From Amphiscolops sp. MND2022 (Eukaryota): 64,000 nt of DNA. The translations under genes were made by a program, and so were the position numbers. Below, in pieces: positions 9,980 through 64,000 of the stretch. The notes beneath the pieces are model-generated. The model was not told where the DNA came from and ran no database searches. It saw only the letters and a list, made by a program, of their open reading frames with translations. The stretch is from positions 51,770,001 to 51,834,000 of the forward strand of contig OZ076418.1 in the NCBI GenBank assembly GCA_964187785.1, given 5' to 3'. Positions within the stretch are counted from its first letter, which is position 1, and the number at the start of each line of letters is the position of its first letter.

Positions 9980-11441
9980 TGTAAGAACCACAACAAATCT
10001 CCTACCGACCTTGAGTCCTTTTTAGCGATCTTCGTTTTGGGCCCAGATGCGTTTTCCCTGTTTTCCTGACTATTGGGGGACATACTGTCCTCAGTGTCCC
10101 TGTGAACTGCGGACGACATTGAATTTGCTATATTTTGAATCTCCGGGATGACTCTTTCAGCTATAGCTGTAGTAATAGCCCTGTTTATCTAACTATGCAT
10201 CATGGACATCATTGAGTCCATTTCTTGGGATAGCCTAAGATTAAATTCAATTGAGAGGACCTCAAGGGACTGTCTAACATCGTTTTGCCTCACAGAGTCA
10301 TTTTCATATGTCAAATTACCGTACTCATTACTATGTTACGCATTTGTATTCGCGTCCTCGTGGACCGATGATTGCTCTATCGCATCGGCTAATTCTCTTT
10401 CAATGGGATTGTTAATATCATTTCCCAACATTACGTCTAAGTTATCATAGTCGGACATCATGTCCATTTCCCTAGATTTTCTGGCTTTTGCCTTTTGTTT
10501 TCTTGTTGAAGGCATAAGAAATTGTTACAAGATAAAGATGTAAAGTATCTTTGGCTTCCAAATTTAGTGTGATATTACTAAGCGATAGGTAACTTCAATA
10601 TGTAATATCTTCCAACCATTCTGTCCCCTGGACTAAATGTCCCAGCTATTTATATTAGATACCACATGACATTCAAAATATGGGTTGTCATATTCTAAAA
10701 ATAGCCTTAATGGCTTGGTAAAATAGCAACAGTTCCAAAAACTTCAAAGGGTCTTCCCGACAATCAGCGTGATGGCGGGAAGCCCGTGTGTCTACTAAAC
10801 AGATCAATAGCATACATGAACGAAAGCAAAATACATGCATTTCAACATTTTACATGTGATTCATCAATAGCACGCTACATTTCGTTAATATGCGGTCTTT
10901 TGACACTAAGTGTCCATTTTATGAAAGATGAAAGGCCTTTCCAAGTTCCAAGTAAATGTACTCTCTATTTAGCACCTTTAATTCAAAAGTGGACTCAGTG
11001 TCCAATCGACATGGCAGTCCTCATTTTATTTGTTGACAGGCGGCATATAGCTGTCTAGTCCGAAGATCAAAGCGCCGCATAAAGTAATAAATATTAGCAC
11101 TGGTTTTTCAAATACTCCATTGTGATAGGTTGAAGCTCATTCGGACTTGCTGTCCAAGGCGACAGGCGAGGGAACATTTGAACACGTTTTCTCTACCTGT
11201 ACGCCTTGGTGTCCAATTCACTAGCATCGTACAATTAGCGCTGGTATTACATAACACTAAATCATAACTTTAATTGATATCTTACATTCAAAATAAGTAA
11301 ATTACATGACTTCTAAAGTATAAATGCGGTTTAGTTTAAGAGTTTCAGAGTTTCAATTTAAAGGGATTGTGCTGGGTAGGGCGTTTTGATAGTCATGACA
11401 AATAGAGTACATGTTGCCATCACAGGCGGACGCCTGGGACA
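9980..11441 (-). repeat. 3' LTR of element A (1462 bp)
   Basis: Aligns with 23734-25002. PPT abuts it. TATAAATA on the minus strand at 10647-10654. Copy of the gag ATG at 10515. Confidence 0.92.
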
Positions 11442-12186
11442 CTCCCCCTGCGATTAGCATGAAGCTTCCCACCTTCATCCCTTCTAGGATCGCTAGTCTT
11501 CTGGCATTAAATTGCTCTGGAGATTCCCTCCGAACGGCCGTCTTGTGTAGGTAGTCAATCACTGTCTCGAATCTGTTCAACAGATTTTCCGCAAATGAGG
11601 CAGTCTGTGCAGCCCGTGATGTAAGGGTTGTCATCGCCGCTTGGTCCTTTAACGTGAATTCCACACGGGCATTGTTGCTTATTGCCCGTAGAAGATTCTG
11701 TAACCGCTCTCCAGTCGCCTGTTGGGTATTTGTCCACTGCGGGGGCGACATTGGTTTGTCCACCATTGGGATCAATTGGCTGCAAATGTTGATCGGGTGC
11801 TCGTTTCTAAGTCTTGAGTCTCTTGCAACTGGCCCTCTCCCCATCCCTAGGTCGAAATATCCAGCGTCGAACAGAGGTCCTGGGATGTATGAAAGCCTGG
11901 GGGTCCTTGCACAATTTTCCCCTTGTTGATTTGAGCAAGAGGGCACTGGGAAGCTCTCTGAGGCCGTCGGGAGTTTCATTTGCCTTTCTATGCATTCTGC
12001 TAGTAGGGCCACCACATCATCGTCGGACAAAGAGTCCAGGTCGTCTACCGAAGCGCTGCTCGCACATCCTATCTCATCGTCGCTGGATATATAAAGTATC
12101 CCGTCTCACGGGGCTGCTCCCTTAAAGTCTTCTGGGTAGTATTCAGGGGACTCCGAGTCAAAATGGCTTGATAGGAACTTGTCCAT
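11353..12186 (-). pseudogene. Accessory sense ORF ('ORF3') of element A, with one in-frame stop and two compensating frameshifts
   Basis: Homologous to 53841-54662: ILYISSDDE, CIERQ, GPVARD.R...HPINIC, GCTDCLICGKSV (in the shifted frame), GGVSQASACDGN...ALPSTIPLN. Confidence 0.8.
11442..11450 (-). promoter_or_regulatory. Polypurine tract of element A (CAGGGGGAG)
   Basis: Immediately precedes the 3' LTR TG on the minus strand. Identical to the PPT of element B. Confidence 0.8.
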
Positions 12187-24260: not shown

Positions 24261-25002
24261 AAGAAATTGTTACAAGATAAAGATGTAAAGTATCTTTAAC
24301 TTGCAAATTTAGTGTGATATTACTAAGCGATAAGTAACTTCAACATGTAGTATCATTCAACCATTCTGTCCCCGGGACTAAATGTCCCGGCTATTTATAT
24401 TAGATACTACATGACATTCAAAATATGGGTTGTCATTTTCTAAAAATAGCCTTAAGGGCTTTCTAAAAATAGCAACAGTTCTAAAAAGAGCAACGATTAT
24501 AACTAGAACAAGTGACATCATCATGATATGTGTAACTTCAAAGGGTGTTCCCGACAATCAACGTGATGGCGGGAAGCCCATGTTTACTAAACAGATCAAT
24601 AGCATACATGAACGAAAGCAAAATACATGCATTTTAACATCTTACATGTGATTTATTAATACAACGCTACATTTCGTTAATATTCGGTCTTTTGACACTA
24701 AGTGTCGATTTTATGAATGATTAAAGGCCTTTCCAAATTCCAAGTAAATGTACTCGCTATATAGCCCGTTTAATTCAAAAGTGGACTCAGCGTCCAATCG
24801 ACATGGCAGTCCTCATTTTATTTGTTGACAGGCGGCATATTGCCGTCTAGTCCAAAGATCAAAGCGCCGCATAAAGTGTTAAATAATACTGGTTATTCAA
24901 ATACCGCGGAGTTTCACTTTAAAGGGATTGTGCTGGGTAGGGCTTTTTGATAGTCATGGCAAATAGAGTACATGTTGCCATCACAGGCGGACGCCTGGAA
25001 CA
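23734..25002 (-). repeat. 5' LTR of element A (1269 bp, with a ~240-bp U3 deletion)
   Basis: Aligns with 9980-11441 but lacks the equivalent of ~11110-11350. TATA at 24392-24399. Confidence 0.92.
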
Positions 25003-30852: not shown

Positions 30853-31049
30853 TGAAGTAACTTGGAGAAACAAGAGGATAAATACAGTGAATTAAAAAGC
30901 AAGAGTGTAAGTATCGAAGCCACTCTAAATTGTAACTGATATCTCAGTGAGTTTCTATATACGCATTAACATTACATGACATCATAAAAGTGGCAGGTAG
31001 TTCAATGTTCATTTTAACTGTATTGTTCATTTTGCCATTTCATGCCACA
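30853..31049 (-). repeat. 3' LTR of the Mag element
   Basis: Direct repeat of 36137-36333 with TG...CA ends. Confidence 0.95.
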
Positions 31050-31189
31050 TTCCCCTTCTTCCGGGACCTTCTAAGGGAACCATTGTTGCCGTGGAATGTC
31101 TTTCTTGATCCGTGGAAATGGAGTGAACGGGAATCGAGCTGGAGTGGTGAAAGTGTAGGCGTCTCCTAAACGTAAAAGATTTAAAAATA

Positions 31190-36101: not shown

Positions 36102-36136
36102 TATTTTTCTTTTTGTTCAAGATGCTGACTGCGCCA

Positions 36137-36333
36137 TGAAGTAACTTGGAGAAACAAGAGGATAAATACAGTGAATTAAAAAGCAAGAGTGTAAGTATCG
36201 AAGCCAATCTAAATTGTAACTGATATCTCAGTGAGTTTCTATTAACGCATTAACATTACATGACATCATAAAAGTGGCAGGTAGTTCAATGTTCATTTTA
36301 ACTGTATTGTTCATTTTGCCATTTCATGCCACA
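36137..36333 (-). repeat. 5' LTR of the Mag element
   Basis: Direct repeat of 30853-31049. Confidence 0.95.
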
Positions 36334-38941
36334 GGTACATATAATTTCATGCTGCGGACCTACGTTCCAATTGACTGAGTGCATCCTAATAAACTAGCAC
36401 GGTATTCTTTTTGAACGCGTTCCCTTTAACTTTATATGTTGATTTCAAAAATGATGTTACATTTGCTACTTGTACGCACTACGCAAGTTACTGCTTTACA
36501 TGAGAGCTTGTTTTTGTGATTTCGTAAACATAATTAATGTAATTAATGTAACAAACAGAGTCTTGAAATTAAGTTTAAATACTTTGCATATTAAAAATGT
36601 TTGTAGTTTGTAGGACCAATGATCCGTCTGTTTATATCGGCAAAACTCCTGGGAGTGTGGTGAAATTGTCGCAATTACGAGTGGCCTCTTGGTATCGGTT
36701 GCTCTCGCAGACGGCAGCCTGCGAAATACGAACTCTACTCGGTATGGATTTGTTAGACGAACTGATCACCGAATTCTCTATACAATATTTGATTTCATAG
36801 AAAAACAAAGAATACAACAATCGAAACAAAGAATAACGCAATCACGGATCATTCGGAGAAGTCAATCGAGTTTTTGGAACTGTCAAAAATTTCTTCGAAA
36901 CAAACTCTAACTTATGAAGTATCGAATTGGATATCCATACTCAAATATCATTCAGCATAAAGTTCAACCCAATAAACATTCAGCATAAATACCTGTAGAT
37001 AAATACTTTTCTACAGGATTGAGTATGAAACAAAATGACAAGACTCTTGAAAACAGGCAATCTACTAACTGCAACTAAACTGAAAACAACTAAATCAATG
37101 GCGGTAACAATGGTAAATGATGGGACTCCCATGAAACTTTCGTTTTCGACTCTAGAGAAACAATGACACACGCTCAAAGAAACAACCTCAAGTTCCAAAT
37201 CTGAAGGCGCTAACTAGGGAATTATCAATATCAATTCTAACAATTCTAATAATACCAAAAAACTGCTATGAATTTCCAAAGAAGAATTTTTCTATTTTCT
37301 AGATTTTTAGAGATACGAAGAAGTCAACATAGAACTACTAATCAATTACTGACAAGACCTCATGTTCGTAAAGAACGTAAGTTGCATTTTTAGAAGAGTT
37401 CATTTTCGCTGTATGGTTTTGTGTTTGTGTGCTTATGAATGGGCGTTTAGTCATTGACCTTCACTAAAAAAAATATCATAAAACTTGAAACAGCTTCAAC
37501 GTATTTTTTAAGATGGCTCATTGGATACAACATAGAAATCCCAAAAGATGCTTGCAGTTTGGCCAACACACGAAGCGACATTTATCGGTATCTCAAAAAC
37601 CAGAGTCCCCAGGAAAGAGTTTTCCACACTCCCTATTGACTAACTTTTACGGATTTTTAAAATCAGAAAAGCATCAAAACATCAAAACCAGTTATGCCGT
37701 ATCCATTTTAAAGTAGCCCGAGAGCACCTTCCATTACATGCAAATCCCTTGTATTAAGTCCCCGAGTGACAAGGAGGAGCATTTATTACACTTGAACGAA
37801 TGTCTTCACACAAAAATTTTTTGGCACCTCATTTTCAGACCAACTATGGAAGATCTTTTAGCGAAGGAGTCTGGATCACTATAGAGTTCCCACTTCCCGA
37901 AAAACCAGTCCACTGAGGAAGCGTCCCTATAAGTAGGGTATAATGCCCTCAAAATTAGCCCTTTGGACTACTGACCAGCTATTTACGCTATAATTGGATC
38001 ATGATTGCTAATCTGTGAATCAAATTTGAACCTCATCGGATAACCTTGGTTTACATCTAATAGAAAGCTTTCTTGCACTGTTGACGGCTCTGCCAACGAA
38101 TCTACAGTCGCGGTCATAATAGTTAGGACACAATGATTTGCTGAGTTTTTTCACAAAAACCACCACTTAATAATAGAACAGATATAAACAAAAAGGATAT
38201 ATCATACATATGTCAAAGCTTGAACTCTATGTTTTGATCAGTTGCTCAGTTTCATATTTTATTTAACAACCTGTCGTATCGATCGAATTGTTTTCAGTTG
38301 CGTTCTGGCAATCTGTTCTAACTATTCTGTCCTGTGTCCACGACTGTAGCTGCTAGCAGTACCTTTCCCCACCCGCAGAGGCATCCTGTACCAGACTTAC
38401 TGATTCGGGAACAGGTTTCCAAACGTTTGGTCTTGTACTTAATAGAGATAGAACTGAAAGGTCCTCACTCAATCAAGAAAGCCATTACTTTGGTACTGGT
38501 TTCACACTGTTATTCGACTAGATCAGAAAAGGAAAAAGGTAAGGAAACTTTGTTTGAAAGGATATACAACAATAATGAGTTGAATAGGCAAATGTATGGT
38601 ACAGTCATGAAATTGTATTGAAGATCGATATGCTAACAGCACTACCTATGACAAAAAGTTCCGAACTTTTTGAGCTGTACAGATATTTGCGAGTTGAGCA
38701 AACGCGTTCATATTTTTGGGTATCAAATCCCTGTCTTTTAGCCAGTTGTATGCTTGCCGTAATCTATTTTCAACTGATTTCGATTCAGTGACAGTCCCAC
38801 ATTAGGGGATAGGTAACAGTCCCTTTTGGCTCCTTCTAATATAATATGAATGATTATTCTGAGTCTGCTGTATTTGGTAAACCGAGAGATGATTTCACTC
38901 TCAATTGTTTGAAAATTTCTGTGAAAACCTCCATTAGATAT

Positions 38942-40579
38942 TGTAAGGAACAGAGTCCGTGTGGTCCCTCAGATTACAAGCGGACCTCGAGTCCTTCTTT
39001 GTAAATTTCGTATTTGCGTTCTTCCATACATTCCCAATTCCATCCTCGTTTGTGGACGTACACGGCTCAACGCCATATTGACCCAAAGGCAAGTTTTCCA
39101 CCATGTTTTGTATTTCTGGAATAATCCTCTCACTTATGGCAGAACTAATAGCACTACTGATTTGTGAATGCATTAAGTCCATCATCGTTTCCATTTCGCG
39201 TGACATCCTTGCATTCATTTCTCCACACAAAATGATAATTGATTCTAATAGTCTACTTTCTTCAACAGGTTCATTTCTGCTATCAATATCTCTAATCTCA
39301 TTTTCTTGAGATGAATTTTCCCTGTTAGGAAACGACCTGAAGTCTTGAGGCCCTTCAGGGGCGTTAATGAGACTATCTAATTCTCTTTCTATAGAGTTAG
39401 AATTACCTTCACCCAGGATTACGTCCATGTTGCCGTAGTCGGACAACATGACTAACTCTCTTGATTTTCTGGCTTTAGAATTTGTTTCCTTGTGGAAGGC
39501 ATTGAAAATATCTTTCCAGGAGAAAATAAGTAAATTGTTCCTATGGACAATGTATGTTGGGTTTACAGTGAATCTTGTACTACCAGTAAAAGAACAACTG
39601 AATAATAACCGTATCGTATCTATCATTGAAATTGTGGGCAAACTTGGGCATATATATACTCAAGACAGCATGACGTCCTCAATTCTGACGGTCATGCTGC
39701 TAAAAACAGCACACAGACTAAAAATAGATACACCAGAACTATAAATAGTAACATGACTTCATCGTGGACCTATGTGAGCAGCTAGATCAAAATGCCCAAC
39801 AACGTCACGTTGCACATAGGTCAAATTGTTTACAGGTATAAATTCATGTAAGCAACGATTTTACATGCGAAGTGATTCATGTCGGTCCAATACGGCTTAC
39901 CGCCGTAAGGAACTATTTAACCCCGTATTACTATATTAAATGGGGAAATACAACTACATATTAACGTTTACATGAGGTTGAACACTCAGTAATTCATAAC
40001 ACGTATTTCATTATCATATCATCAAAAATAGCATCGATTTCATCATATTAACAAATGAGAATACTCATTTAGTCCGCTGGCCGTATAGGGCCTCATTTCT
40101 CTAGCAGCAGCACTAGTGACTTTTGGACAAGTAAGGCCGTTCAGCCATTAGGACCGCATTCGCTTTGTTTTATCTATTTAATAGCTCCAGTATAGCAGCA
40201 AAATGCAATTAGTCCGCTTAGGCCAAGTAGCCGTGACGGTCCATTCTGATTAATAAATGAATGCATCACTACAATTACAAACAGAACAAGATGAGCTATG
40301 ATTGGCTAATACGCCGTACGCGGCTACGCTAGCTATACTTAACAGGCAAACATTTGAACTCGTTTCCTTTCTGCCTGTCAGTATAGCTTGCTGTCAAACA
40401 TCAATCATATTACAAATAAAATAGCTAAATTGACTTACATGGGTTGCAAATATTAAAATGAAATAATGTTCCCAAAGTTATTCATCCTTGTAATTATATA
40501 GGTAATGTACCGGGTAGGGCAATAGGCAGGCTGTGGTCAATGGTATAGAGGTTGCCATCGCAGGCGGCCGCCTGCGACA
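38942..40579 (-). mobile_element. Solo LTR (1638 bp) of the large Gypsy family
   Basis: TGTAAG...GCGACA ends; TSD GATAT at 38937-38941 and 40580-40584. Contains the gag N-terminus homolog (ATG 39502) and the ORF3 C-terminus homolog SQAAACDGN...ALPGTLPI. Confidence 0.92.
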
Positions 40580-40999
40580 GATATATTTCAAATACAGTCA
40601 TAATTTTGTTCCGTTCGAATATATATCCAACACTATCATACTTATTCCTATAAAGAATTCTACAAGAGGCCAATTGAAGCATGTCGAAATGTTTCGAAAC
40701 TCGCTAAAATTTTCCTTGTACTCGTTATGTTTCACAGATGAGAAAGTTTTACCTGTTGAACTGCAGTTTTAGTTTCGATTGAAAATTTTCATTCAGGTCC
40801 CTGATTTTAGCGTGCATTCTAATCATGTGCTTACAAAATTTCACGGCATTTTCAACTAGAGTACGTGCAACATTTGACTTGAATGGTCTTGATTTTTGTA
40901 TAAATTGAATGGTCATTTTTTGACTGAAATAAATCACCATGTCTTATTTTTACTGCATTTTTTATTATACGTTTTGTACGGAGGTCAACCCGGGATTCC

Positions 41000-48656: not shown

Positions 48657-50450
48657 ATGAACGATCCTGTGGAGGAAAACGTCAAGAACGGAACAAATGG
48701 GTCAGAGGTTAATGAAGGATCTACAAATTTAAACCCGAAGCAAGTCCCGGGCCATCCAGAATTCGTGGGAAGCAGCCAAGAGAAGCAACGCAAACTCAGC
48801 AAAGATCTACCTGAAGGGGAACAGTTTGAACTTGAACCAAAATTGCCACCTCAAGAGCTTCCCAATGCTGAGCCAGAATTCGCTGAAACAAATGGGCTCG
48901 GGGTTGATGGAAAATGTACCAAATCAAACCCAAACAAAATTGCGGAACATTCAAACTGCATGGAAAGCAGCCAAGATAATTGCGACAAATTCAGCGATAC
49001 TCAATCTAAACAAAAGAGAAGTAGAAATCCAAGAACTACATCTGACCCGTTTCCCGTGATGAAACGAATTGATCCAGAGGCTAATTCATTCCTTGACGCG
49101 GACCAAGTGGCGGAGGTAACAGATCTACCTAGCCTGGAAACTAGCACAAAACCTGAACGACAAAATGATGAAATTGTCAAAGAAATGTTTGAAAACACAG
49201 AAAAAATGATCAAACATTTGTATCAAACATATGATCAATCTACTCTTGTGGATATGTTCAGACTTGAAGACACAAAGGAAGAAATCGAAGAGCCGTGTAA
49301 AGAAAACACAGGGAGATATAGTTATTATCTATTTCTCGAATGCCTTCGCGAACTCGCAAAGACAGATGGTGATAGAAACGAGATTAAACAGTTCCAACGA
49401 GAAATGTCTTCGAGATGTTGCAACTCTGGGAATAAACCTGTTAACAATACTTTGATTTTGATTTTTTGGATAAAAACCCGGTGTTATATAAGTGACAGCA
49501 ATCCTAACCTTGAGCTTGAATCATGTATCAGAGATCGATCTTGTTCGCTTTGGGATAAAATTTTTAGTCCTAGGAAGAATGCACAGGGATATGAAAAGGT
49601 GTCAACATCTGATGGAGATCATAATAAAGAATCGAATACGTTTACAGAAGGTCACACTAGCTCATCCAATGCACAAAATTCGAGTGTTCACAACGGCCAA
49701 ACATCCGAACAAAATGGTCAACTTTGTACAAGTGCACCAAATGGTATTCAATCATCGAATGGTCTGCAAGACGAAGATCTGGAAGGCGTTAACTCAGGTC
49801 GTCAACCCTTGGAAAGGCACTCAGAAGATAATGCTATAGCCAAAAATGGTTCTTCTGATTCTTCATCTGACGATCCCAACAATACCAGCCAACCACATAG
49901 CCAAGAGTTGGGCGGTGATCAAAAAAATGCACAACCAACTGTTGCATTTGCGAGCGGAAATTCAAAATCTCAAGAGCTACATCCTGAAAGAGTTAACAAT
50001 GAAGAACCAAATCCGTCTGCTAGTATTGCTAAACAATCAAATTACGTATCTCTTCCAAAAGAGAAAAAATCAGCAGCTACCGATTCTACGGAAAAAAAAG
50101 TATATGATAAATTAAACGGGAACCCTCAACCTATGTCTCAGGAGAAATTCTTCCGTTACCTACGTCAAAATTTCAGGGAGACATTGCAGGTAAGATGTTT
50201 CCTCATAAATTTAGAGAATTCTTGTTGCTTTCACCCAATACAACACTTCTTCCGATACTGCCACGAGAAGTTCTTCCTTGGAATCTACATGGAGTATGCT
50301 GCAGTTCGAAGGAATTACACAAAGATTTCCTGTTGCTGTGGATGTTGCGGGACTTGCCTCATCTTTCTTATATCACTTCTCGTTATCATAGGTATTCTCA
50401 TTGGATTTATAAACCTTCTGTGGAAAATTGTAGAAACATTGGGTCATTGA
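48657..50450 (+). CDS. Uncharacterised 597-aa protein: disordered N-terminus, Cys string and C-terminal transmembrane helix (probably tail-anchored)
   Basis: 1.8-kb open frame in AT-rich DNA; SCCCGCCGTC followed by LIFLISLLVIIGILIGFINLLW. Possible in-frame intron from the CAG|GTAAGA donor at 50190. Confidence 0.65.
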   Translation: MNDPVEENVKNGTNGSEVNEGSTNLNPKQVPGHPEFVGSSQEKQRKLSKDLPEGEQFELEPKLPPQELPNAEPEFAETNGLGVDGKCTKSNPNKIAEHSNCMESSQDNCDKFSDTQSKQKRSRNPRTTSDPFPVMKRIDPEANSFLDADQVAEVTDLPSLETSTKPERQNDEIVKEMFENTEKMIKHLYQTYDQSTLVDMFRLEDTKEEIEEPCKENTGRYSYYLFLECLRELAKTDGDRNEIKQFQREMSSRCCNSGNKPVNNTLILIFWIKTRCYISDSNPNLELESCIRDRSCSLWDKIFSPRKNAQGYEKVSTSDGDHNKESNTFTEGHTSSSNAQNSSVHNGQTSEQNGQLCTSAPNGIQSSNGLQDEDLEGVNSGRQPLERHSEDNAIAKNGSSDSSSDDPNNTSQPHSQELGGDQKNAQPTVAFASGNSKSQELHPERVNNEEPNPSASIAKQSNYVSLPKEKKSAATDSTEKKVYDKLNGNPQPMSQEKFFRYLRQNFRETLQVRCFLINLENSCCFHPIQHFFRYCHEKFFLGIYMEYAAVRRNYTKISCCCGCCGTCLIFLISLLVIIGILIGFINLLWKIVETLGH

Positions 50451-51890: not shown

Positions 51891-52383
51891 AAAACCCTTT
51901 ACCTTATGTGTCATGCCGTAAGCATGATTGAGTGTTTGGGATTTAATGATGACGTCAAACACACAGCGCTCAAGAGTAGCAATTGACCAAAATGGGAAGC
52001 AAAAATGCAACGTGGTTGAACACACAACACTATAGAACAAAACGGAACAAAATTCAATTTTATACATTTTTCGACAATTTTGGACAATACAGCATTTTTC
52101 AACAACGACCCGCCTTTTCAGTTGTCAAGTGCATTTTCATCAATGTTCCTATTCAAAAGTAGTACGTGTAGTTCACCTCATTATCATCATTGTTTTCTGT
52201 GTAGTAACGAAAGAAATTCCCAATGATGTTTGGTTATTTTATGTACCATATATGATTCATATTACGACAGTGACATACCATCGTCATACATTGCAGTAAC
52301 GCCACTTAGCGGCCAATTTTGTATTGACACCTAACATGCCTATTAACACCAGTTAAAGAGATCAATATTTTCGGGTACGGTAG

Positions 52384-52927
52384 TGTAAGAGCCACGTTCC
52401 GCGGCGTTCCTTAAGTCGCCCATGGACCGTGAGTCCTTTTTCAATATCTTAGTTCTTAGACCAGGTAAATCATTCCTATTCTCCTGACTACTAGGGGACG
52501 TACTTGCCTCAGTGTCCCTGTTCCCTGAAGACGACATAGAACTCACGATGTTTTGTATTTCTGGAATCACCTTCTCCGCTATAGCAGTGCTAATTGCTCT
52601 GTTTATTTGCCCGTGAACCATAGCCATCATGGAATCCATTTCCTGGGACAACCTAAGATTAAATTCATTTGAGAAAGTTTCAAAGGACTGTCTTATGTCA
52701 TTTTGACCATGAGGCTCATTTTCATGTATGTAATCTCTAAAGTCATTTCTTGAATGGTTATCAATTTCCATGTCACCGTGAACGGAAGATTGGTCTATTA
52801 CGCCTGCTAACTCTCTTTCTAAAGGGTTTTCATTCCCAATCATTACGTCTAAATTATCCATATCGGACAATATGTCCATTTCTCTGGATTTTCTAGCTTT
52901 TGCTTTCTGTCTCCTTGTAGAAGGCAT
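52384..52927 (-). CDS. LTR-encoded Gag N-terminal 181 codons (3' LTR copy, open)
   Basis: MPSTRRQKAKARKSREMD...RGSY is uninterrupted to the LTR end and reads 13 codons into the flank. Confidence 0.6.
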
Positions 52928-53929
52928 AAGAGTTTATTGCAAGAGGTAAGAATTTGAATTAGTTCCTTAGGCTTGCAAACAGAGTTTGAGTATTCCAACA
53001 AACTGATTGTAATAATAACAGGTAACATTCTGTTTGGGACCTAGGGTCCGCAGTATATATAGTTCGAATTTACATGACACGCAATATTATGGGGGTCACA
53101 TTCTAAAAATAGCCTTCACTGTCATCTAAATACAGTAACTGCTATATATATAGTAACATGACATCACATAGTGGTCTAAAATTAGACTTCAAAGCCTGTC
53201 GGCTTGATTTGTTTAAGAGGACACTGAGTCCTTAACATAGCATCATCAATTCAACACTTCATACTTTTACATGTACATCAAATTTCATGTTTTTTAATAA
53301 ACAAAGTGGTGTTTTAGCCAAGCAGGCTAAATACATACTAAATAGCAACATTTCATGGTATATTTCATCATTTCTAAGGCACATAGAAAATACGTCCTTA
53401 GCGTCCAAATAGACGTGGACGGACTGAAATAATGGCTTGTTTGAAGCAACGCATGTCTAGTTGGACCAGCAGTCCTTTTAATCACAACTAAGCACTAAGT
53501 GAATATGCGAACAAAGGCCGAGTACGGCGCTTGTACAAAGCCGCGCCGTACTAGAATGGATTAATTTAATGAACACTGCACTCTGATTGGTCAGTTTAAT
53601 AATTGGACTGGCCGTCCTCGGCGACAGGAGAGAAAACACTTGAACTCGTTTCCTCCTCCTGTACGCCTTGGTGTCCAATTATTAATGCTGTTAATCAACT
53701 TTACATAATGCAATGTATTAAATCAATAATACAGTAACTGAATAAAAGTAACATCGTATTTTAAGGGCATTAATACATGGAAAATAGTTTTGCAAAATGG
53801 TTAGTTTTACACTAAGTTTCAAACTTCTTCGTTATTTTCCTCAATTAAGGGGGACCGTTCCGGGTAGGGCCTTGCTGTAGTCATATGCCACAGAGTACCA
53901 ATTGCCATCGCAGGCGGCCGCCTGCGACA
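52384..53929 (-). repeat. 3' LTR of element B (1546 bp)
   Basis: TGTAAG...GCGACA ends homologous to the other family LTRs. PPT CAGGGGGAG at 53930-53938. Confidence 0.9.
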
Positions 53930-54662
53930 CTCCCCCTGGCATGAGTAAAAATGTGCCTGCTGCCATCCCGTCCAGAAAGGCTCTCTTTCTTCTCTCCGTT
54001 TCCGCAAGAGTTTCGCCAATCACTACAGTTTTGTCGATGTAATCGTTTACTGCTTCCGTTTGGATCTGTAGGACTGACTTGCCGCAAATGACACAGTCGG
54101 AGCAGCCTGCCAAACTGGTATTTCCTGACAAAGCCATGCCGTCAAAGTGATTCGAAACTGATTCTATTGACACATGATCTGAAGAATAAGAGCAAGTCGG
54201 CGTTTGCTGGTCCCGTGAAGGCCCCCTGTCCTCTGGGGGAGGCGACATGGGTGTGTCAACCATTGGACGTAAGTCCCTGCAAATATTGATTGGATGATTG
54301 GATTTGACTCGCATATCTCGTCCCACTGGTCCGTTTCCTGAACCTAGATTGAAGAACTGCTGAGAGAAAGTCGGGAATGGAGGAAGACTAGGTCTGGGCG
54401 TCCCGCATCTGGCTTGAGTACTTGAAGTCCCAACATTGGGAATGGTGATGGGCTCAGTCAACTGCCTTTCTATGCATCTGGCCATAATCTCAACGTCTGT
54501 GAATTCTTCCTCTGACGATAAGTACAGATCGTCCACTGAGTCTCCGCAGACTGAATCCATCCTTTCTTCCTCGTCACTTGAGATGTAAATTATATCTGGT
54601 TCCCCTTCTGATCGGACGATGCCTTGGAAATCCATTGGGAACGTCTCAGAAATGTCAGACAT
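53841..54662 (-). CDS. Accessory ORF3 (273 aa): SIM-like motif, CxxCxxC, C-terminus encoded in U3
   Basis: Intact ORF with DIIYISSDEEE and GCSDCVICGK. The PPT encodes PGG, and the last ~29 codons lie inside the LTR. Confidence 0.8.
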   Translation of the reverse strand: MSDISETFPMDFQGIVRSEGEPDIIYISSDEEERMDSVCGDSVDDLYLSSEEEFTDVEIMARCIERQLTEPITIPNVGTSSTQARCGTPRPSLPPFPTFSQQFFNLGSGNGPVGRDMRVKSNHPINICRDLRPMVDTPMSPPPEDRGPSRDQQTPTCSYSSDHVSIESVSNHFDGMALSGNTSLAGCSDCVICGKSVLQIQTEAVNDYIDKTVVIGETLAETERRKRAFLDGMAAGTFLLMPGGVSQAAACDGNWYSVAYDYSKALPGTVPLN

Positions 54663-55042
54663 ATATCTGTCTTTTATCAGTTTTTTCGCAATTTTGTGAA
54701 GAATTTTGACTTTAGGGGCAACTTCTTTTGAGATTGAAACTTGAATAATGACGGACCCGTCTCGGCAGACTAGCGGGTTTTGCGTTTAGTTTTCCCGGGG
54801 TTTTCATTCCTCGTGACTGCCGAATATCTCACAACAAATTTCCATCTTCACCTCTTTTAACTAGCCGCCAATTCCACTTTGATATAGTTGCCGACGGCCT
54901 CGTTGTTCTTCATCAACTTTGTCAACACTTCCAATTTAGGAGTGATCTCTCAAGTGTTTATTAACACTCATCAACCACTTAAAAATTCTCAAGTGGGTGA
55001 AGATATGGCAGAAAGCCACGCCGTCCGTCAGGTCCTGAGTAG

Positions 55043-55122
55043 CCAATAGGAGAGCAGTAAATTCTTCATCGATTCAGAATGGCTCCCCACAGTCGTAATT
55101 CCATATAAGGAATAATATAAAA
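55043..55122 (+). promoter_or_regulatory. Candidate internal antisense promoter of element B (CCAAT + TATAAAA)
   Basis: CCAAT at 55043 and TATAAAA at 55116. The 34-nt block CCATATAAGG...CTTGAAAA is identical to element A. Confidence 0.45.
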
Positions 55123-55882
55123 TGACCTTGAAAACAAATAAAAATGAAAAATAAAATGAAATAAAATAAGATAAAATCATGAAATAATTTTGTAAAATAC
55201 CAAAGTTTTCGAAATAAATAAAGGAAATGTAGATATCGCTGGCAGACTCTATCCACATAATGCCGTAAAATGTAAATAATTGTAAATTTGACACCAAACT
55301 GTATAGCCACGAACTCCAATCTTGACGTCTTGTCACATTGCCGATTCGCCGTTTCAATTCTTTTACATTCAATTGCAATCATATTACTCTTTCTTCTTCG
55401 TATTTAATCACCAACATATTTATCCACTTTGTATTTAGTCACTTGTTAGTCTTTTAGTTCATCTTCTTTTATTATCACCACATTTATCAGTGAGTTATCT
55501 TCCCCCTCGTCAGTTGGCCGTACACGGACAATAGACAACTACCCCTTGGTGACGGACATCCTTCTGGAATTCAAGCCTCCCCATCTTCATAGCAGTGTCA
55601 GCCCCTTCTGGGTTTATTTGACTTCCAATCAATTGCCCTCCCGGACAACATTCGATTCAAACTCCTTGCATCTTCAGGTTAGCTATCTGGTCTTTTTCTT
55701 TTGAACGGAAATGGGTTTGATCAGGACCTATTCACGTTCGTAATACTTCCTGTCCATTTGTTTTAAAGAACGTTGACTTCATGTCTTGTGTTCCAATCTC
55801 ACTTCTAGAAGATTTGTAAAGCGGTCTCATGGATTCATACTCAGGAAGTTACCCGCTAAAATTTGTATCTTTTCGTTTAGAT

Positions 55883-58800
55883 ATGTCCAACGAAGAGGAT
55901 CTGCCAGAATCCACCATCCCTGTAACAGTCCCCGTTAGTCAGGGGCAAGAACAAGAACCGCCGCAAGTCCAGAATGTGCCCGAGAAGGAAATCAGGCCTG
56001 AGTCCCAGGCGTCCAATTCAACCGATGAGAGTGTCACTGCATTCATTGAGCGAACAGTTTCTCAATTTTCAAACCCCCCAGCAGTCCCTCCTGACCCTGA
56101 AGCAGGAGAAGGCAACCGAGAGTCTATCAAGGCTTCTGAATCTGATCCTTTAGAGAGAGCAGGAGAGACCCGATCAACAACGACCGTTATTGAAGAAACA
56201 CAACAGGACACTCACGAACGAAGGGGATTGTACAGTAGTGACAATAGTGATCAGGGAGACTTGTACGACAGTTCAGGAGTCGATTTACCCACCACCAAAT
56301 TGGGCGGATTTACCTTTGATCCAAACGCGTTCCCAGCTTTTGATGATGAATTGCAGCATTCTTCGGGAAACAGCGATGCTGAACAAGCAGCTTACCGGAC
56401 CAAAGTGTTTTCAAGTGAAAGACATTTGTCTCCAAGCGGTAGAGAAGTGATCCGCAAATATTTCAGTAAGAACGTTCCCGTCGAACTGCCTCCAGGACAC
56501 TCAACAGTTGCTTTCAGTGAAAGCCAAGTGCACGCTGTGTTACGCACCATAGCTGACGAGTCAGTGTTATCATCGTTTCACATGATGAAATCACTGTTGG
56601 TAAAGGTGACTGAAGGGATCCCTTTAAACAAAAAGCCATCTCGGAACATCCCTCGTCGATCAGCCACACCCGGACCAGGACAAGAATCTAGTTCTGGAGG
56701 GGAAAGCGCTTCTGCTGACAGTGATGGATATACTAGCGGAGCTATAGATACTGACGAGGACTTTCGAAATATCGAAACTGGATCTGAAGGCAGTTCTCCC
56801 TTCGTCTCAGCCTCTAAAACTCTCGCCACTGTATTGGGCGAGCCGGGTCCGTCTAGAGTCGCGACCCCAAATTCAGGCAGTAGTTACAGCAGCGCAGATT
56901 ACCGTCCTCTAGCATCTCTCACACAGGCGCAATCCCCTGTTACGTCCAACCCCAGTCCTCCTCGGAAGCGAAGAAAGATGCTCTGCAAACCGGGCAAAGT
57001 CATGAAGGATGCCTACTTTAAAGGCATCCAATGGACAAGAACCTTTGTCTCGGGGCCCCTCGATCCTCTACACAACCGTTACAAATTTTACTGCCAGATA
57101 TGTAAGACAAACATATCAATTTATTCAAAAGGAGCCAGGGAGATCCTCCGCCACTATAAGACTCAGGGACATTTACGTCGAGATCAAAGGTGGAGGTATG
57201 AACACCTCAGCGAAGTTGATGCCACAACCGGTAGAGTGACCCACCAAGTCCGGGATAAAGATGGATATTTGTTAACACCTTTACAGTTGGAAAAGGAGAA
57301 ACCCCTTTTCATGGATGCTCCTCTCGTCGACATTGGAGACAAGTTTCCTTTTTATGATGACTACGTTGCCACTTTAGAAGGGTCCTCCAGTCCAGATGAG
57401 CTCCGAACGACTACACAGATATCCCTGATCGGACTCTTTGTGCCTCATGGCGGAGACTTAGCGCTCCTGCGTACCCTGTGGACCCGATTCGGAACTTTTA
57501 CGAGTCATCAAGGATTCTTCTCTGATTTTGACTGGCGAGCGGACAACCTCACTGTAAGTATTGCCTCCATCTACGTGGCCTGGTGAGATCCCTAATTATT
57601 CGGTTCTAATGCGATTGATTTTATTTTTAGAAAATTTTCCATCACATCTTCTTGCGCTGTACTGAAGACATCGCGTGTCAGATCTCCACGGAGGGCGCCT
57701 ACTCATTGGAGTTCACTAGTCGCAAAGGTTTCTGCTATATGGCCGTACGTTTCTGGCGGGAGGACGTTGTCCAACGTGTGGAACTGTGTAGACACCCCTT
57801 GGCATCAGCGTACCCTGGAAATTTCTTCGGGTCAATTTCTCGGGTCTTATCCTTCATCTCCTCAGGGCCCAACTTGGTAAGCGTGTCCGGATGTCCCGCT
57901 GCTGTGCTGCAAACGCTTGACCAGAGCAAGCTGTTTAAATTCTCCATCCAGTACCCGTTCAGATTTGAGGTCCTGTCATTGCCGCGTCTCATGCATCAGA
58001 AGTATGATGACTTCTTTGGGAAAATTGACATCTTCTCCCAACTCAAGTACCTAACTGTCTTCCTCATCAACGCACTTAGTCAACTATGGATGTTGGACTG
58101 CCCTAACCTTTCAGCGGTTAGATCTTTCTCTCCTTATTTCCTTGATTAAGGTTACCCAGATGTATAGTTGGACATGCGGGCTAAGAGTGGAGTGAGTCCG
58201 ATTTGCATATGATTAATCAAACATTTGTATTCCAGGCCATTACCAGTTGTGATTTGGACTTGCAGAGCATCCCCGCCATTTGTAGTGAGATGATTGCACA
58301 GTGGCCTAACATCCGCGACTTCATAACTCGAGAAGCTCCTTCCCAATCCTGGCAGGGAGTCCGGGGCAGGGTAAGACACTTATTATTTGGTTAATTTCCT
58401 TTTGATACTACGGTTAGATATCAGAATCGTGCCCCTGATTTTGACCCCATAATTGTTTCTCCATTCAGGACCTAAATGTGGTAGTCTTTAGGGTCCAAGT
58501 TGGGTCATTTGCCTGGCGTTTCACTTTCTTTTCCTTTCAGCCGCAAAGTCTTGAGTGGATGATCCTGATGGATGCTTACTTCACTGTGAAATTGGAGATC
58601 TTCGGCCTCATAGTCCGCGATTGTAAGTATGGTTCTTTTGGTCGTTTCTGTTTTCTCTTAGATCCTGCTGTATGTGTGGTGTTTAGACGTGAAGTGCTTC
58701 GAACGCAGTCTGTCCGGGCGGTCCGATGCTTCCTTCTTCACTTTCGGGCAGTTTTGTCGTTTCCTGCGAAAGCTTTGTTCTCGCGCAGTTCTCCCCAAGT

Positions 58801-59846
58801 GTATCCCTGACGACACGAACTGGACGGGCTTACTTTATTTGTGCCCTGACGACCTGAAGTTGCTTTCGTGCCGAGATTTCTTGAACCGGCTGAAACTTGT
58901 TACTGACATAGATGCCTCTTGTAAAGCCAAAGTCCGCCAGTCCCGAATTGACCCCAATATCAGTGCCAGTGAGTTCAGCGCTTTACTCGCCACTGAAAGA
59001 GACAGCTTTGCAACAAGTGCCAGAGGATTCTTCGTCTTTTTACTTGAGACGTTCTTACGTGACGTCCATCTCACCGCCGATATTGTCCATGGTCTAGCTT
59101 GTTTTGATCCACATACACTGGTTTCTCTGTCCATGGATCAAGTGACCTTTTGTTTTGGAGCTTTATTCCAGACCTTCTGCCTGCGTGGATGGATTCAACG
59201 GTCCTTGGAGCCTGATTACCGAGACGAATATCTGGAATTTGTTGATTACTTCAGGGCTAATTTCCCTCAGTTCAAGGACATGCCAGGGCAAATGAAAAAT
59301 GTGGTCAGCTTCCTCGTCGCTCTTCCAGCCATGCGTACTCGCAAGAATTTATTTCACTTGTTCCGACTTAGTTGCCTTTGCCTGACCGAGGGCGGTGCTG
59401 ATCTTCCGGCTATCAAGTTCCATGAAGTAGATTCCTCCAAGCCTAAGTGCCGTTTTGTGGACATGCTCTTACCTGCCCAGTCTTATTTAGCTAGTTGTTC
59501 GCAAGCTATAGCCTATTGCACTTCAGAGAGCTCCCTTGGTAAATTCCGTAGTTTGGATAATCAGTTCAATTCTGGGCAATTTGCTGGCGATCCTTGGACG
59601 CATGTAGATACCTTTGGGCGTTCCTCTTTCCAGAAGAGTCTGATGACAACTTTTAAAGGCCTGAAGCCTACCCCTGTAAAGGCAGTTACCATCCCTTCAC
59701 GTTCCTCTTCCATCTCGTCCACAGTGGGCCGCAATGTTCTTCCCGGATCTGGGGGTGCTCAAGAGCTTACTCTCTTCGGAAATCTTTCTTCCACCGAGGT
59801 TTCAAAGACCGTCGAAGACTTAAAGGAAGGATGCTCTAAAGACTAA
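55883..59846 (+). CDS. Intact spliced antisense accessory gene (1177 aa): BED-like Zn finger and catalytically degenerate hAT-transposase-like protein
   Basis: Exons 55883-57553, 57631-58116, 58236-58370, 58541-58622 and 58687-59846 total 3534 nt (1178 codons including the stop). All introns are GT-AG and phase-compatible, and the gene is collinear with the element A copy. Confidence 0.85.
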
Positions 59847-60010: not shown

Positions 60011-63000
60011 CTAGTATCTATATTCATCAGTGTAGTTGGGGGTGGGGTTAGGTCGAAGATTATATTTCCCTCCTCTAGGGCTAGACGTTTCATTCTCATT
60101 TTCCGTATTTTTCCCATTGTCCGATATTCCGGGCACGGAATTATCCTCCCCTCTGTTGGGAGAGTTTCGTACATCATCATAATTTTCATTCGGTAGGTGT
60201 GTAGGGGCATCGGTAAAATTTCGGTTGTCTCGGCTAGTAGCCGTATTCGGCCTTTCAGTTTCGCTGCGTTTTTCATCATTTGCTGCATAGTCGTTGACGT
60301 CATTTTCATCACGCGTTGTAAGTGTATCTCGGCTAGTGGCCGTGCGCGTCCTTATTTCATCTTCGGTGACGTTATTCTCATTTTGCGGCTTGGCAGTCGA
60401 TTCGTCCCGAGTGGACGTCATTTTATGGCCATCGGACGTACTCGTCCTTACTTCGTTTTCAATGACGTCATTTTCGTTCCTTTCTTCGCTGTTGCATTCA
60501 TTGTCGGTGACGTAATAGTCTACATCACCGCTCGTGGCGTCCTGTGGAAGGCGCGTGACCGCGTCCCTCCAATCATTCTTTCGCGGCTCAAACAGCTCGT
60601 ACTCAAAGTCCGCTTCCCATGAAATGGTATATAAGTCGTCTTGCGGTATTACTATTGATTCGTCGGGCTGTAGTTTCTCTTCTTTATATTTGTCTTCTAA
60701 TGGGGCGTTTGGGACAAATTTTTTGAGCCTGATTCGGTGTAGGATTTGCGTTTTGTTCGTATTTAAACGACGCACTATATAATTATTGTTTGGTAGGACT
60801 TTTTGAACAACAAAGGGTCCAGTCCATCTGTAGTCCCTAAAGGGTATTTTTGATCCTTGACTATCCGCTTTTGGTTGAAGAACAAAACAATAGTCCTTTT
60901 CTTGTAGCGGAGCCGCTTTGGCCTGGCGGTCGTAGTATTCCTTGTACTTTAAATACGACTGCATGATATTGTTCTTCGTCTGATCAATGAGGATTTGCGT
61001 CCTCTGTTGTAATTCTTCCGCAAATTCAGTTGTTGGTAGGGAATTTTTATTAGGATTATTTCCCAATTTATGATCAAGGACGTTATAGGGAATTCGTCCG
61101 TGAAAGACCTTGCTGGGCTCACATCCAATACTCGAATGATAAGTAGTGTTGTAGTTGAGCACAGCCAGTGGCAAATATTTATGCCATTGACGGCGATATT
61201 CCCCTGAGGCCATTTTCAAATTAGTCTTCAAAGAGGCGTGAGTCCTCTCAAGTTTGCCAATAGTTTGCGGGTGCTTTGTAGTTGCGCATTTGAGTGTTAT
61301 GCCCAATATTGCAGTAATTTCTGCCAAAATTGTTGAAGTAAATGCGGACCCCTTGTCTGTGATGAGAGTTGTCGGTAAATAAGCGTGTTTCGTCATTATG
61401 TCAATTATCACCTTGGCTACATTTGCGGCTGTTGCCTCAATTAGCGGGTAGGCGAAAAGATATCGTGAGAATACATCTATTGCTGTCATCACTGTCTGGT
61501 ATCCGCCACTAATTGGTAAATTTGGTAACAAATCAATTTGCATGGCATCTTCTGGGCCAAGGTCCCATTCGGGCAAATTTAGCAATTCAGGTGTAATTGC
61601 AGCATTGGGGACTCTCTTGTCCTTGGCACATATTTGACACCCTTCTACCCACTTTTTGACGTGTTTTGCTATTCCTGGGTAGTAATACTTTTGACGAATT
61701 TCCTGTAGCATTTTAGAAATGCCCGGGTGTCGATGTGCTGTGCCATGTATTGCTTGTAATAATTCTTTGAGTAAATGCTTTGGCAATAAGATTTGATGGT
61801 ATTTGACCTGTCCAGTTTCATCATAGTACTGTCGCGTCACTATCTCGTCTTTGAGGACTATTCTGTCTATGTTGTTCAAGTAATACTTGTACCGAATATC
61901 CTGTTGAAGGATTTCTTCAGAGTATTCTTCATTTTGAAGTTTCGCCCTCAGTTGGAGGAGAATCGGGTCTCTGGATTGTTCAAGCAGTATCTGATTTGTT
62001 CTTCTTAATTTCTGTGTGAAGTTAGTGATCTCTTCGACGGTATTTTCTGATATAGCGTCAATTTGGATTACTGCCTCAGGGACTATGAGGCCCCTTTTGG
62101 ATTGTTGTTTCCGTTACCAAATTTGTTGCTCTGTCTCATCGTCTGCTTCAGTAAAAAAGACTTGCTCTTCTTCAGATACTCCCGCTGATTGAACATTGAC
62201 TTCAATTGGTCGGGTCTCGACGTCTGCACGTATTTTCAGGACTAACTTTTCATTAGGGTCCATTTCCATACGGGACAAGTAGTCTGCCGCTGTATTGTTT
62301 TTGCCTGGAATGTGAGCTATAATGAAGTTGAATTGAATGACAAAATCACAAGCATTCCAGAGGGGCGGTGGAATTATCTTTGTCTGGAAGAACCTTGTGA
62401 CCGATTTGTTATCTGTGAGGATAATCACGGGATGAGGTGTTCCCCAGAAGATATGTCCAAATTCCTTAAATGCATAATATATAGCTAGGAATTCCTTTGC
62501 ATATATCGACATTTTGAGCTGAGAAGGCGTGAAAGTCTTAGATCCATATGCAATCGGTGCATAGGACTTTTTAGCAGAAGTGTATTTTTGGTTTGGGTCG
62601 TCTTCGGTCAATATGGCGTAACCGGCTGCTGTAAAACTTGCGTCAGTCATGAGGACCAGTTGTTTGTTCGGCAGAGGTTGTTTCAACGCCAATTGGCTAC
62701 ATCGGTCTAAATCGCGGTTGATCTCATTAAATTGTTCAACTAGCTCTTGCGTTACTAGTACCTTTTCATCTTTTTTGAGCAATTGGAAGAAGGGAACTAA
62801 TTTTTCGGATAGCCTTGGAATATAATTCCTGTAATAATTGAGGAAACCAAGGTAGCGTTGTAAGGCCTTCTTGGATTTTGGGAATTTCGTCTTTTCCAAA
62901 AAGTTAGTGATTCTTTCTTTTTGGGGTTTTACGCCTTCAGGTGTAATGGTTCTCCCAAGAAAGTCAATTTCAGTAGCACCGAAATGGCACTTGTGCATGG

Positions 63001-64000
63001 ACAATTTCAATCCTGCTTCTCTGATACATTGGAACGTTGCTCTTAAGTTGACGATAAGCTGGTTAGCGTCTGTCGCCGCGACGCCGATATCGTCCACATA
63101 TTGAGCACATTGGTCTGCTTTTATAACACGGTCCAAATATTCCCTTATAAAACTGGAGAAGGCCGACAGGGCTCTACTGAGTCCTTGGGCTAATCTTCTA
63201 TATGCAAATGTTCTGCTGGCGAAGTTAAAGGCCAGCATTTCAATCGATTTCTGGTCCGCCATGGGTAGGCAGTGGTAAGCCTGGGAACAGTCGAGTTTGC
63301 AAAAGAGCTTTTTGCCTGCCATATGTTGTGCCGCATCCGTTAGGGTACTGACTGGGTGATTGTTGTTGATATAATCGTCTGAGATGAGATTATTTATTTT
63401 CCTCAAATCAACCAACAGTCTCAATTTCCCATTGGGTTTTTTCTGCGCGAAGATGGGACTGGCATACTTTGAGAATGGTAATGTCGTTATAATACCATAT
63501 TTATGAAGTAACGCCAGTTCGACCAATATGTCCTCTTTGAGGTTGACTGGGGTAGGTAGGCTCTGACTGTAGGCAGGTGAGTCGTCTTTTGGGGTCAGTT
63601 TGACCGTAAATTCCTCATTGACGCCTATGTCAAATCTATGGCGTGCAAAGATGTCATGGAATTCCACTAATAGAGTCTCTATTTGTCTGATTTCATGTTG
63701 TTGTAACATTGAGTCTTTCCAATCAAAGTTGCTGAGGAATTTTCGACGAGATTCCGCATCGTCGTGCGGGTTGAGTTGTTCTAAACTTTGTAGATTTCGT
63801 AATTCTTTGAGAATTCTTTGTTGTATTGGGGTATGAGTCGTTTCGTCCCCTGGGTTTTCAGGCGTGGGGAACCAATATTGTTCGTATTGGTCATTATTTC
63901 TGTTAGCTTTAAGAAGGCTACTTATATAATAAATAGCGTCATCTTCATTTTCATTCAGTAAGTGCCAGGTGGACACTGGGTCTATTGGCCTGACGTGTTT
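60011..64000 (-). CDS. pol: pol of element B (RT-RNase H-integrase); one in-frame TAA at 62114-62116
   Basis: RT YVDD, RNase H MTDAS...KEFLA...TDNK, integrase HHCC with QIDLL, TDKG, KLER and GPF. The frame is continuous across a single stop. Confidence 0.93.

Follow-up and report, generated by a model that had tools for sequence, protein, structure and literature searches.

ORF3 and its carrier element

The DNA analysed here, referred to throughout as the window, is a stretch of 64,000 nucleotides from Amphiscolops sp. MND2022 (contig OZ076418.1, positions 51,770,001 to 51,834,000 of the forward strand). It holds part of element B, a long terminal repeat (LTR) retrotransposon of 15,580 bp from 5' LTR to 3' LTR, whose last gene is an accessory open reading frame (ORF) that we call ORF3. 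Our results show that ORF3 is a selected, non-env accessory gene with conserved motifs, positioned across the polypurine tract (PPT) and the U3 region of the 3' LTR, and that its carrier is a large Ty3/gypsy-type LTR retrotransposon family. The features of element B are the following:

53841..54662, minus strand: ORF3, 273 amino acids (aa) from its first ATG (ORF list)
53841..53929, minus strand: part of ORF3 within U3, SQAAAC...PLN*, 28 aa plus stop, 89 nt (LTR alignment)
53930..53939, minus strand: short PPT CCAGGGGGAG of element B, translated P-G-G-(V)
52384..53929, minus strand: 3' LTR of element B, 1546 bp, TG..CA ends (alignment with the adjoining genomic stretch)
52379..52383, minus strand: target-site duplication CTACC (flank comparison, element B)
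52384..52927, minus strand: start of gag, first ~181 codons within the LTR, MPSTRRQKAK... (ORF list, LTR alignment)
60011..61711, minus strand: integrase part of pol (Pfam rve, H2C2)
62114..63709, minus strand: reverse transcriptase and RNase H part of pol (Pfam RVT_1, RT_RNaseH)
Beyond the window, L031:3418-4963 in the next genomic stretch: 5' LTR of element B (alignment)

The first-pass annotation described ORF3 as reading through the PPT and ending inside U3, and both statements hold, since CCAGGGGGAG encodes P-G-G-V and the frame continues for 28 codons and a stop (89 nt) beyond the LTR border. In every clade examined this border falls within the same Val codon, and the peptide is retained even if no purine-rich sequence precedes the LTR, which indicates that the U3 overlap is held by selection on the protein and not by the PPT alone. 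The protein consists of an acidic disordered N-terminal half and a small Cys/helical C-terminal module. Its strongest 19-residue Kyte-Doolittle hydropathy window reaches only 1.17 (0.86-1.55 in 10 homologues), so the view that it is not env and has no transmembrane (TM) helix was correct; both candidate N-termini are charged, and hydropathy and charge give no sign of a signal peptide, no dedicated signal-peptide predictor having been run. One large clade (L103-L114, L117), which accounts for 10/86 of the regions compared, has ACCCGCAG instead of a purine tract before the 3' LTR; it nevertheless includes young copies (LTRs 99% identical).

The carrier shows paired TG..CA LTRs, a target duplication of the 4-6 bp class, a primer-binding site (PBS)-like TGGTGACAGGAGC directly after the 5' LTR, a PPT and, on the minus strand, Pfam matches to reverse transcriptase, RNase H and integrase in the order typical of Ty3/gypsy elements. 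The two LTRs of element B differ by 1 mismatch over 1546 bp. Despite this near-identity, its pol is interrupted by an in-frame stop that separates RNase H from integrase (61711-62116), and pol is uninterrupted in other copies. Gag begins ~540 nt into the LTR and continues through the PBS (window 52384-52927; L031:3418-3967), so that a 180-230 aa N-terminal fragment of Gag is present in every LTR, solo LTRs (38934-39626) included. The LTR is coding at both ends, with the start of gag at one and the end of ORF3 at the other.

Copies of ORF3 number in the hundreds and fall into at least 21 clades (defined at 60% identity), and the frame is open in clades that are only ~30% identical. Four divergent queries returned at least 143, 155, 141 and 139 matches in the same genome, all of them lower bounds that cover the best candidates only, and no internal stop was present in 131/143 of the listed matches of the first query, a count biased towards intact copies. 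The carriers are very young (LTR pairs 96-100% identical), and copies of the window's own subfamily are 98-100% identical. Public collections yielded 105 homologues with 30-99% identity, and 530 clusters were obtained at 50% identity; sampling members of 10 of these clusters gave unnamed ENA proteins only. For some of the public homologues this genome offers no close counterpart (the best match for P0121 is 46% identical, and P0198 has none at E 1e-60 or better), and it is therefore likely that the family exists in more than one host species.

Selection was assessed by the ratio of nonsynonymous to synonymous substitution (dN/dS) in 12 representatives, chosen from 63 full frames that a sequence pattern recovered from 80 loci; the other 17 loci either had no such region or were missed by the pattern. 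Between intact subfamilies at 75-93% nucleotide identity, dN/dS was 0.05-0.21 along the whole ORF, which shows that ORF3 is under selection, and it was 0.23-0.61 for pairs that include the broken copy of element A, a relative of element B described below. The pooled value was 0.15 over 21 pairs (4 of them with the element A copy); by part it was 0.09 for the window around the candidate SUMO-interacting motif (SIM; SUMO, small ubiquitin-like modifier), 0.10 for HPINIC-DTPMSP, 0.12 for the Cys/helix module, 0.22 for a linker and 0.17 for the U3 part. The first-pass annotation had named neutral evolution as an outcome that would count against its proposal, and what we found is purifying selection. 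In the same elements integrase is 80-99% identical and ORF3 27-97% identical; between the window and L041, dN is 0.026 for integrase and 0.285 for ORF3, a rate ~10 times higher, as expected for a host-facing protein.

ORF3 matched no named protein family in Pfam scans of 33 and 27 members, which returned only weak single-member matches. The best hit of a PDB sequence-profile search had an E of 0.31, and an ESM Atlas search gave nothing usable. The AlphaFold2 (AF2) model is mostly disordered (mean predicted local distance difference test, pLDDT, 50.8; predicted template modelling score, pTM, 0.24), with helices at residues 53-68, 166-173, 197-211 and 219-236, of which those downstream of a conserved CxxC form a fairly confident hairpin (197-236). 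With this low-confidence model, Foldseek found no match at E <= 0.001 in PDB and viral structures, and VIA-align reached at best Z 6.1, with generic helical hairpins; since the model is weak, the fold searches show neither novelty nor absence of relatives. The profile searches and structure prediction suggested earlier have thus been run, and they gave no usable family and a poor model. The motifs of the protein lie in four segments:

54564..54593, minus strand: phospho-SIM-like motif IIYISSDEEE, residues 24-33 (homologue alignment; dN/dS 0.09)
54504..54527, minus strand: second hydrophobic-SS-acidic repeat LYLSSEEE, residues 46-53, weaker core
54234..54296, minus strand: HPINIC (C128) and DTPMSPPP ([DE][TS]PxSP); C128 in 94/99 homologues, TPxSP in 18/18 clades
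53955..54095, minus strand: CxxCGK (C190, C193), then a predicted helical hairpin ending AFxxGMxAG

A phospho-SIM consists of a V/I/L core (ΨΨxΨ or ΨxΨΨ) followed by Ser and acidic residues, and IIYI-SS-DEEE fits this consensus in a part of the model where pLDDT is below 50, consistent with disorder. The hydrophobic-SS-acidic motif is intact in 62/75 close homologues covering it. A loose phospho-SIM pattern appeared in 1.2% of 100,000 shuffles and matched twice in 90,857 residues of other ORFs, both times as IIYISSDE in loci fetched as ORF3 copies. The SUMO-interaction-like motif of the first-pass annotation is under selection and is kept by most close homologues, but its core decays in several deep clades. 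DTPMSPPP is presumably a proline-directed kinase-like site. The Cys triad proposed earlier did not survive as a family motif, since its first member, C187, is kept in only 29/97 homologues covering it and is mostly Tyr or Phe in the others. Retention among the 105 homologues was 92/97 for C190, 93/97 for C193, 94/99 for C128 and 72/80 for C251, so that the supposed triad is in fact a CxxC together with two distant Cys, which may form a zinc site. Conservation of ORF3 is most universal in its C-terminal half.

Translation start and antisense gene

The region upstream of the first ATG of ORF3 contains an extension of its frame and, further on, a gene of opposite orientation:

54663..54692, minus strand: in-frame N-terminal extension (I)AKKLIKDRY (upstream-region alignment)
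54693..55882, no strand assigned: region between the divergent genes, with conserved non-coding blocks (alignment of 9 copies)
55883..59846, plus strand: antisense gene, five coding exons, 1177 aa (splice-site and frame check)
55883-57553, 57631-58116, 58236-58370, 58541-58622 and 58687-59846, plus strand: exons of the antisense gene

Translation of ORF3 likely starts at a near-cognate Ile codon, which would add a basic (M)AKKxxxxR/K leader, with leaky scanning to the ATG giving a shorter isoform. The candidate AUU in the window (54692-54690, context AAA-ATT-G) lies 10 codons upstream of the ATG and would yield a protein of 283 aa. An in-frame K-I-A-K-K peptide ahead of the ATG was first visible in the upstream alignment of 9 copies, and its full pattern is K-I-A-K-K-x-x-x-x-R/K. 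Among 86 distinct upstream regions the motif is present in 80 and in frame in 79/80, with ATT as the Ile codon in 59, ATA in 18 and ATC in 2, preceded by AAA or AAG and followed by G. Identity at the three codon positions, calculated over 23 representatives, was 0.74/0.78/0.45 from the Ile on and 0.36/0.38/0.37 upstream of it. The search pattern fixed the first four codons; the unfixed codons 5-10 gave position identities of 0.56/0.63/0.43 and an amino-acid identity of 0.36, compared with 0.10 upstream, and position 9 of the extension is R or K in 23/23 representatives. The first Met follows 5, 6, 10, 11, 13 or 19 codons downstream of the Ile, an in-frame stop lies within 10 codons upstream of it in 9/23 (the nearest at 3 codons), and in the L022 copy the usual ATG has been lost while the frame from the Ile is still open. 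Both the in-frame coding conservation and the strong context expected of a near-cognate start are therefore present.

Other sources of the leader were considered and set aside. An upstream spliced exon does not serve as a general source, because no YAG lies between the nearest stop and the Ile in 10/23 representatives, and neither does an upstream ATG, because an open in-frame ATG occurs within 120 nt in only 1/23. A spliced-leader AUG was also rejected, as the acoel leader given in the published account has no terminal AUG (PMC9911081). The in-frame peptide, the codon signature and the frequent absence of a usable upstream ATG or acceptor together make an AUU/AUA start likely. Neither this start nor the antisense gene had been noticed in the first-pass annotation. 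AUU-started extensions are described for cellular genes, and non-AUG initiation is reported there as usually no more than 5-10% of AUG initiation (PMC9082881). For a retrotransposon gene, a near-cognate start kept across clades ~30% identical would be an uncommon signal of expression, and one that ATG-based annotation would miss.

The antisense gene lies between ORF3 and integrase. Its introns have GT..AG at 4/4 junctions with compatible phases (0,0,0,1), and the joined exons form 1178 codons without internal stops, whose product carries PPRKRRK and a C-x2-C-x16-H-x4-H finger (C2H2/BED-like). Its exon peptides and exon lengths recur in the majority of the 13 copies compared, and the gene is present in all clades with long enough flanks, including a clade at ~30% identity. 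There is probably an additional intron in its 5' untranslated region (UTR), at ~55679-55881. By eye only, the gene resembles a dead hAT transposase, but Pfam, PDB sequence and Atlas searches did not confirm the homology, hidden Markov model and hhalign comparisons against 30 long ORFs from hAT-bearing loci of the same genome gave nothing above decoys, and an AF2 model of the last exon followed by fold searches left the hAT origin unconfirmed. A search for DUF4371 was empty, and a search for longer homologues returned 2 unnamed proteins.

ORF3 and the antisense gene stand head-to-head, ~1.2 kb apart, an arrangement which suggests an internal bidirectional promoter with both 5' UTRs in 54693-55882. 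We consider it probable that the ORF3 RNA comes from an internal promoter that also serves the spliced antisense zinc-finger gene. Conserved non-coding blocks at ~54900-55340 include TTGGAGTTCGTGGCT (9/9 copies), GTCTGCCAG, CCTTATATGG (6/9), GCCATTTT and ATTGG; we take CCTTATATGG to be CArG-like and GCCATTTT to be YY1-like. A precedent for an internal promoter serving the third gene of an LTR element is provided by the Tor elements of Oikopleura (PMC4402516).

Element A and other features of the window

A second ORF3 copy is found in element A (~9990-25002), a degenerate relative of element B with the target duplication ATCAC:

11353..12156, minus strand: broken ORF3 homologue in element A, 39% identity (homology search, frame check)

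The first-pass annotation listed several motifs as common to both elements. This stands for IIYISSDEE, HPINIC and SQAAACDGN, but the Cys motif GCTDCLICGKSV of element A is out of frame with the rest, and a stop precedes the SIM, so that this copy is a pseudogene. The C-terminal peptide was also said to be recognisable in both solo LTRs; it was found at 40497-40580 and weakly at 36635-36727 (E 0.079), and a third match at 24920-24997 is the 5' LTR of element A. These matches provide no extra evidence for the protein, since they follow automatically from the U3 overlap. The first of them belongs to a solo LTR at 38929-40579 with the target duplication ATATC and the second to a more decayed LTR fragment near 36.7 kb (~36635-36727).

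The window also contains an unrelated 5.5-kb gypsy element (30853-36333) with 197-bp LTRs that are 98% identical, which encodes a gag with CCHC, protease, RNase H and integrase and from which reverse transcriptase has apparently been deleted. A 597-aa low-complexity ORF at 48657-50450 on the plus strand has a hydrophobic, Cys-rich C-terminus with CCCGCCGTC followed by a TM-like stretch, and gave no notable Pfam match. Tandem repeat arrays with 10-bp and 38-bp units occupy 8376-9185.

Possible functions of ORF3 and known counterparts

A counter-silencing role of ORF3 is a plausible hypothesis. In the chain that we propose, the internal promoter would supply the ORF3 RNA, the AUU/AUA start would give a nuclear, phospho-regulated adaptor, and weakened silencing would help the element to stay expressed. 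We lean slightly towards the view that CK2-type phosphorylation of IIYI-SS-DEE enables SUMO binding, and that the CxxC/helical module holds zinc and either oligomerises or contacts a partner. That ORF3 acts as a decoy or adaptor weakening SUMO-scaffolded heterochromatin at the element is a more doubtful step, and the chain as a whole, an internally transcribed, AUU-initiated, disordered nuclear SUMO-binding adaptor that eases SUMO-scaffolded silencing of the element, is put forward as the best of the readings considered, though a tentative one. The host components exist, as the genome contains a SUMO gene (P0106) and MIZ/SP-RING genes (2 zf-MIZ matches). The SUMO protein shares 81% and 80% identity with named proteins of Convolutriloba and Symsagittifera, which makes an acoel host likely. 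In Drosophila, SUMO is described as a scaffold of silencing guided by Piwi-interacting RNA (piRNA) through SIM-bearing effectors (PMC8490990), and phosphorylation is reported to tune the SIMs of PML, Daxx and PIAS1 (PMC4276917).

Several observations weigh against this reading. Of 21 clades at 60% identity 18 could be scored, and a canonical V/I/L core of the SIM was found in only 10/18 of them (16/27 at 75% identity), although 15/18 have at least three hydrophobic residues there; in one abundant group SLSYL, SSYF or PSYQ precede the SS-acidic tract. At clade level TPxSP (18/18), SQAAAC (18/18) and CxxC (17/18) are more universal, and their persistence where the SIM decays means that SUMO binding may not be the core function of ORF3. 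The leader peptide is no textbook nuclear localisation signal (NLS), and the structural model has low confidence (pTM 0.24). A SUMO decoy that acted broadly would release many elements from repression, and the transposable element (TE) anti-silencers described so far act narrowly (PMC6719617). Finally, the last exon of the antisense gene is 30-98% identical across L036, L040, L048, L041, L038 and the window, and L036 is 95-96% identical to L040 and L048 in ORF3 but only 45-46% identical in this exon. Such independent assortment argues against a strict cognate pair; it suggests that ORF3 and the antisense last exon are exchanged as cassettes. The most inclusive version of our proposal, in which an AUU-initiated, phospho-switched SUMO decoy or adaptor and a spliced antisense zinc-finger protein, expressed from one internal promoter, would form a counter-silencing module swapped as cassettes in an arms race with host SUMO/piRNA silencing, is considered improbable in its entirety.

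Some of the same features can be read differently. ORF3 could be a transactivator of the element's own promoters, with a function like that of Tax or Tas, in which the hydrophobic-acidic repeats serve as activation domain and a partner such as the antisense zinc-finger protein provides the tether to DNA. The net charge of -17 over residues 1-70, the hydrophobic patches and amphipathic helix 53-68, the persistence of the acidic SS tract where the SIM core decays and the head-to-head position of a gene bearing an NLS and a zinc finger would all suit this role, but ORF3 has no DNA-binding domain of its own, the two genes assort independently and an exact beta-strand-like ΨΨxΨ core stands right before SS in over half of the clades; we regard it as rather unlikely. 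A replication-cycle cofactor, acting in assembly, nuclear import or integration targeting, would oligomerise through a zinc-hook-like CxxC and the AxxxGxxxG helix and dock on SUMOylated chromatin or on Gag or integrase. Such a role would explain why CxxCG[KR] lies between predicted helices, why 1/27 members weakly matches the Rad50 zinc-hook family of Pfam (E 0.023) and why the C-terminal half is conserved best. It is nevertheless improbable, because a tight partner of Gag or Pol would hardly evolve ~10 times faster than integrase or be exchanged on near-identical pol backbones. The motifs of a SUMO adaptor would equally serve a self-limiting or competitive factor that directs SUMO-dependent repression at its own subfamily or at rival ones for copy-number control, and a near-cognate start would keep its level low; the abundance and youth of the carriers and the lack of any direct sign of repression make this quite improbable.

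The placement of ORF3 had been called Nef-like, and a cytoplasmic or membrane adaptor of this kind, anchored by the basic amphipathic leader and altering signalling or trafficking, would be in keeping with the position across PPT and U3, the basic-hydrophobic leader and the conserved proline-rich motif. Nef is myristoylated at an N-terminal Gly2. The two candidate starts of ORF3 read (M)AKK or MSD, neither with Gly2, no Pfam Nef match was found among the 33 and 27 family members scanned, and a comparison with the Nef core fold rests on the low-confidence AF2 model (pTM 0.24). What remains of the claim is the overlap with PPT and U3, and even there one large clade lacks a purine-rich PPT; the likeness of ORF3 to Nef is positional only. 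Since sag and rem of mouse mammary tumour virus (MMTV) overlap U3 as well (PMC12789967), this position says little about function, and we consider a Nef-like adaptor very improbable. That ORF3 is merely a passive open frame, kept by PPT and LTR constraints or by recent copying, could be argued from the near-identity of the window-subfamily copies. This explanation is refuted by low dN/dS throughout the ORF at dS values reaching saturation, by the frame staying open in clades ~30% identical and by the peptide being kept without a purine-rich PPT, and we give it a negligible probability.

Additional genes downstream of pol and ahead of the 3' LTR are already known, as is overlap with U3 (nef, sag, rem). 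The former include sense and antisense additional ORFs of plant elements (PMC7264820), TRP28 of Retand (PMC11963269) and the non-env ORF3s of rotifers (PMC5408684). As described in these sources, they share with the present family a non-env gene that is conserved family-wide and placed between pol and the 3' LTR, and a co-occurring antisense gene, but their sequences are unrelated, and the family reported here combines the absence of a Pfam family, the run into U3, a likely AUU/AUA start, a phospho-SIM-like motif, a CxxC and a head-to-head, intron-containing antisense gene. Like nef of human and simian immunodeficiency viruses and sag and rem of MMTV, ORF3 is a last gene that runs through the PPT into U3 and encodes a non-structural accessory protein (PMC12789967); it differs from nef in its overlap of only 89 nt, the absence of sequence similarity and a transcript that is likely not a multiply spliced product of the LTR. 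The third gene of Oikopleura Tor also belongs to an animal LTR element and has its own internal promoter, but it is reported to encode a membrane Env glycoprotein (PMC4402516), whereas ORF3 has no TM segment.

In sequence design, the motif of ORF3 resembles the phospho-SIMs of PML, Daxx and PIAS1, with a hydrophobic core ahead of Ser and acidic residues in a disordered region, but it is encoded by a TE and its core decays in some clades. VANC of the Arabidopsis VANDAL elements is likewise a rapidly diversifying accessory protein encoded by a TE, and counter-silencing is the role proposed for ORF3, but VANDAL is a plant DNA transposon, the activity of VANC was shown experimentally and is motif-specific (PMC6719617), and there is no homology between the two proteins. 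Adenovirus E1A and papillomavirus E7 are hub proteins in which an acidic disordered N-terminal part with short motifs and CK2-type sites is combined with a CxxC zinc module. ORF3 differs from them by having only one CxxC and no homology, and LxCxE was present in none of the 18 clade representatives scored. A literature search, whose scope did not extend to repeat databases (Repbase/Dfam), subscription journals and supplements, found no account of the ORF3 family, nor of any retrotransposon accessory protein with a SIM or with an AUU start; acoels are not mentioned in PMC13524379. What appears to be new is the ORF3 protein family itself, its likely near-cognate start across clades ~30% identical and its head-to-head pairing with a spliced antisense gene.

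Among TE-encoded proteins that counteract chromatin silencing by the host, the plant VANC system is the clearest known case (PMC6719617). For animal retrotransposons, in which the existence of such proteins is in question, the ORF3 family is a concrete candidate, with hundreds of natural variants, one short motif and the host SUMO sequence in hand. LTR elements are reported to dominate acoel genomes (PMC9911081), and a factor of the ORF3 type could therefore bear on their success.

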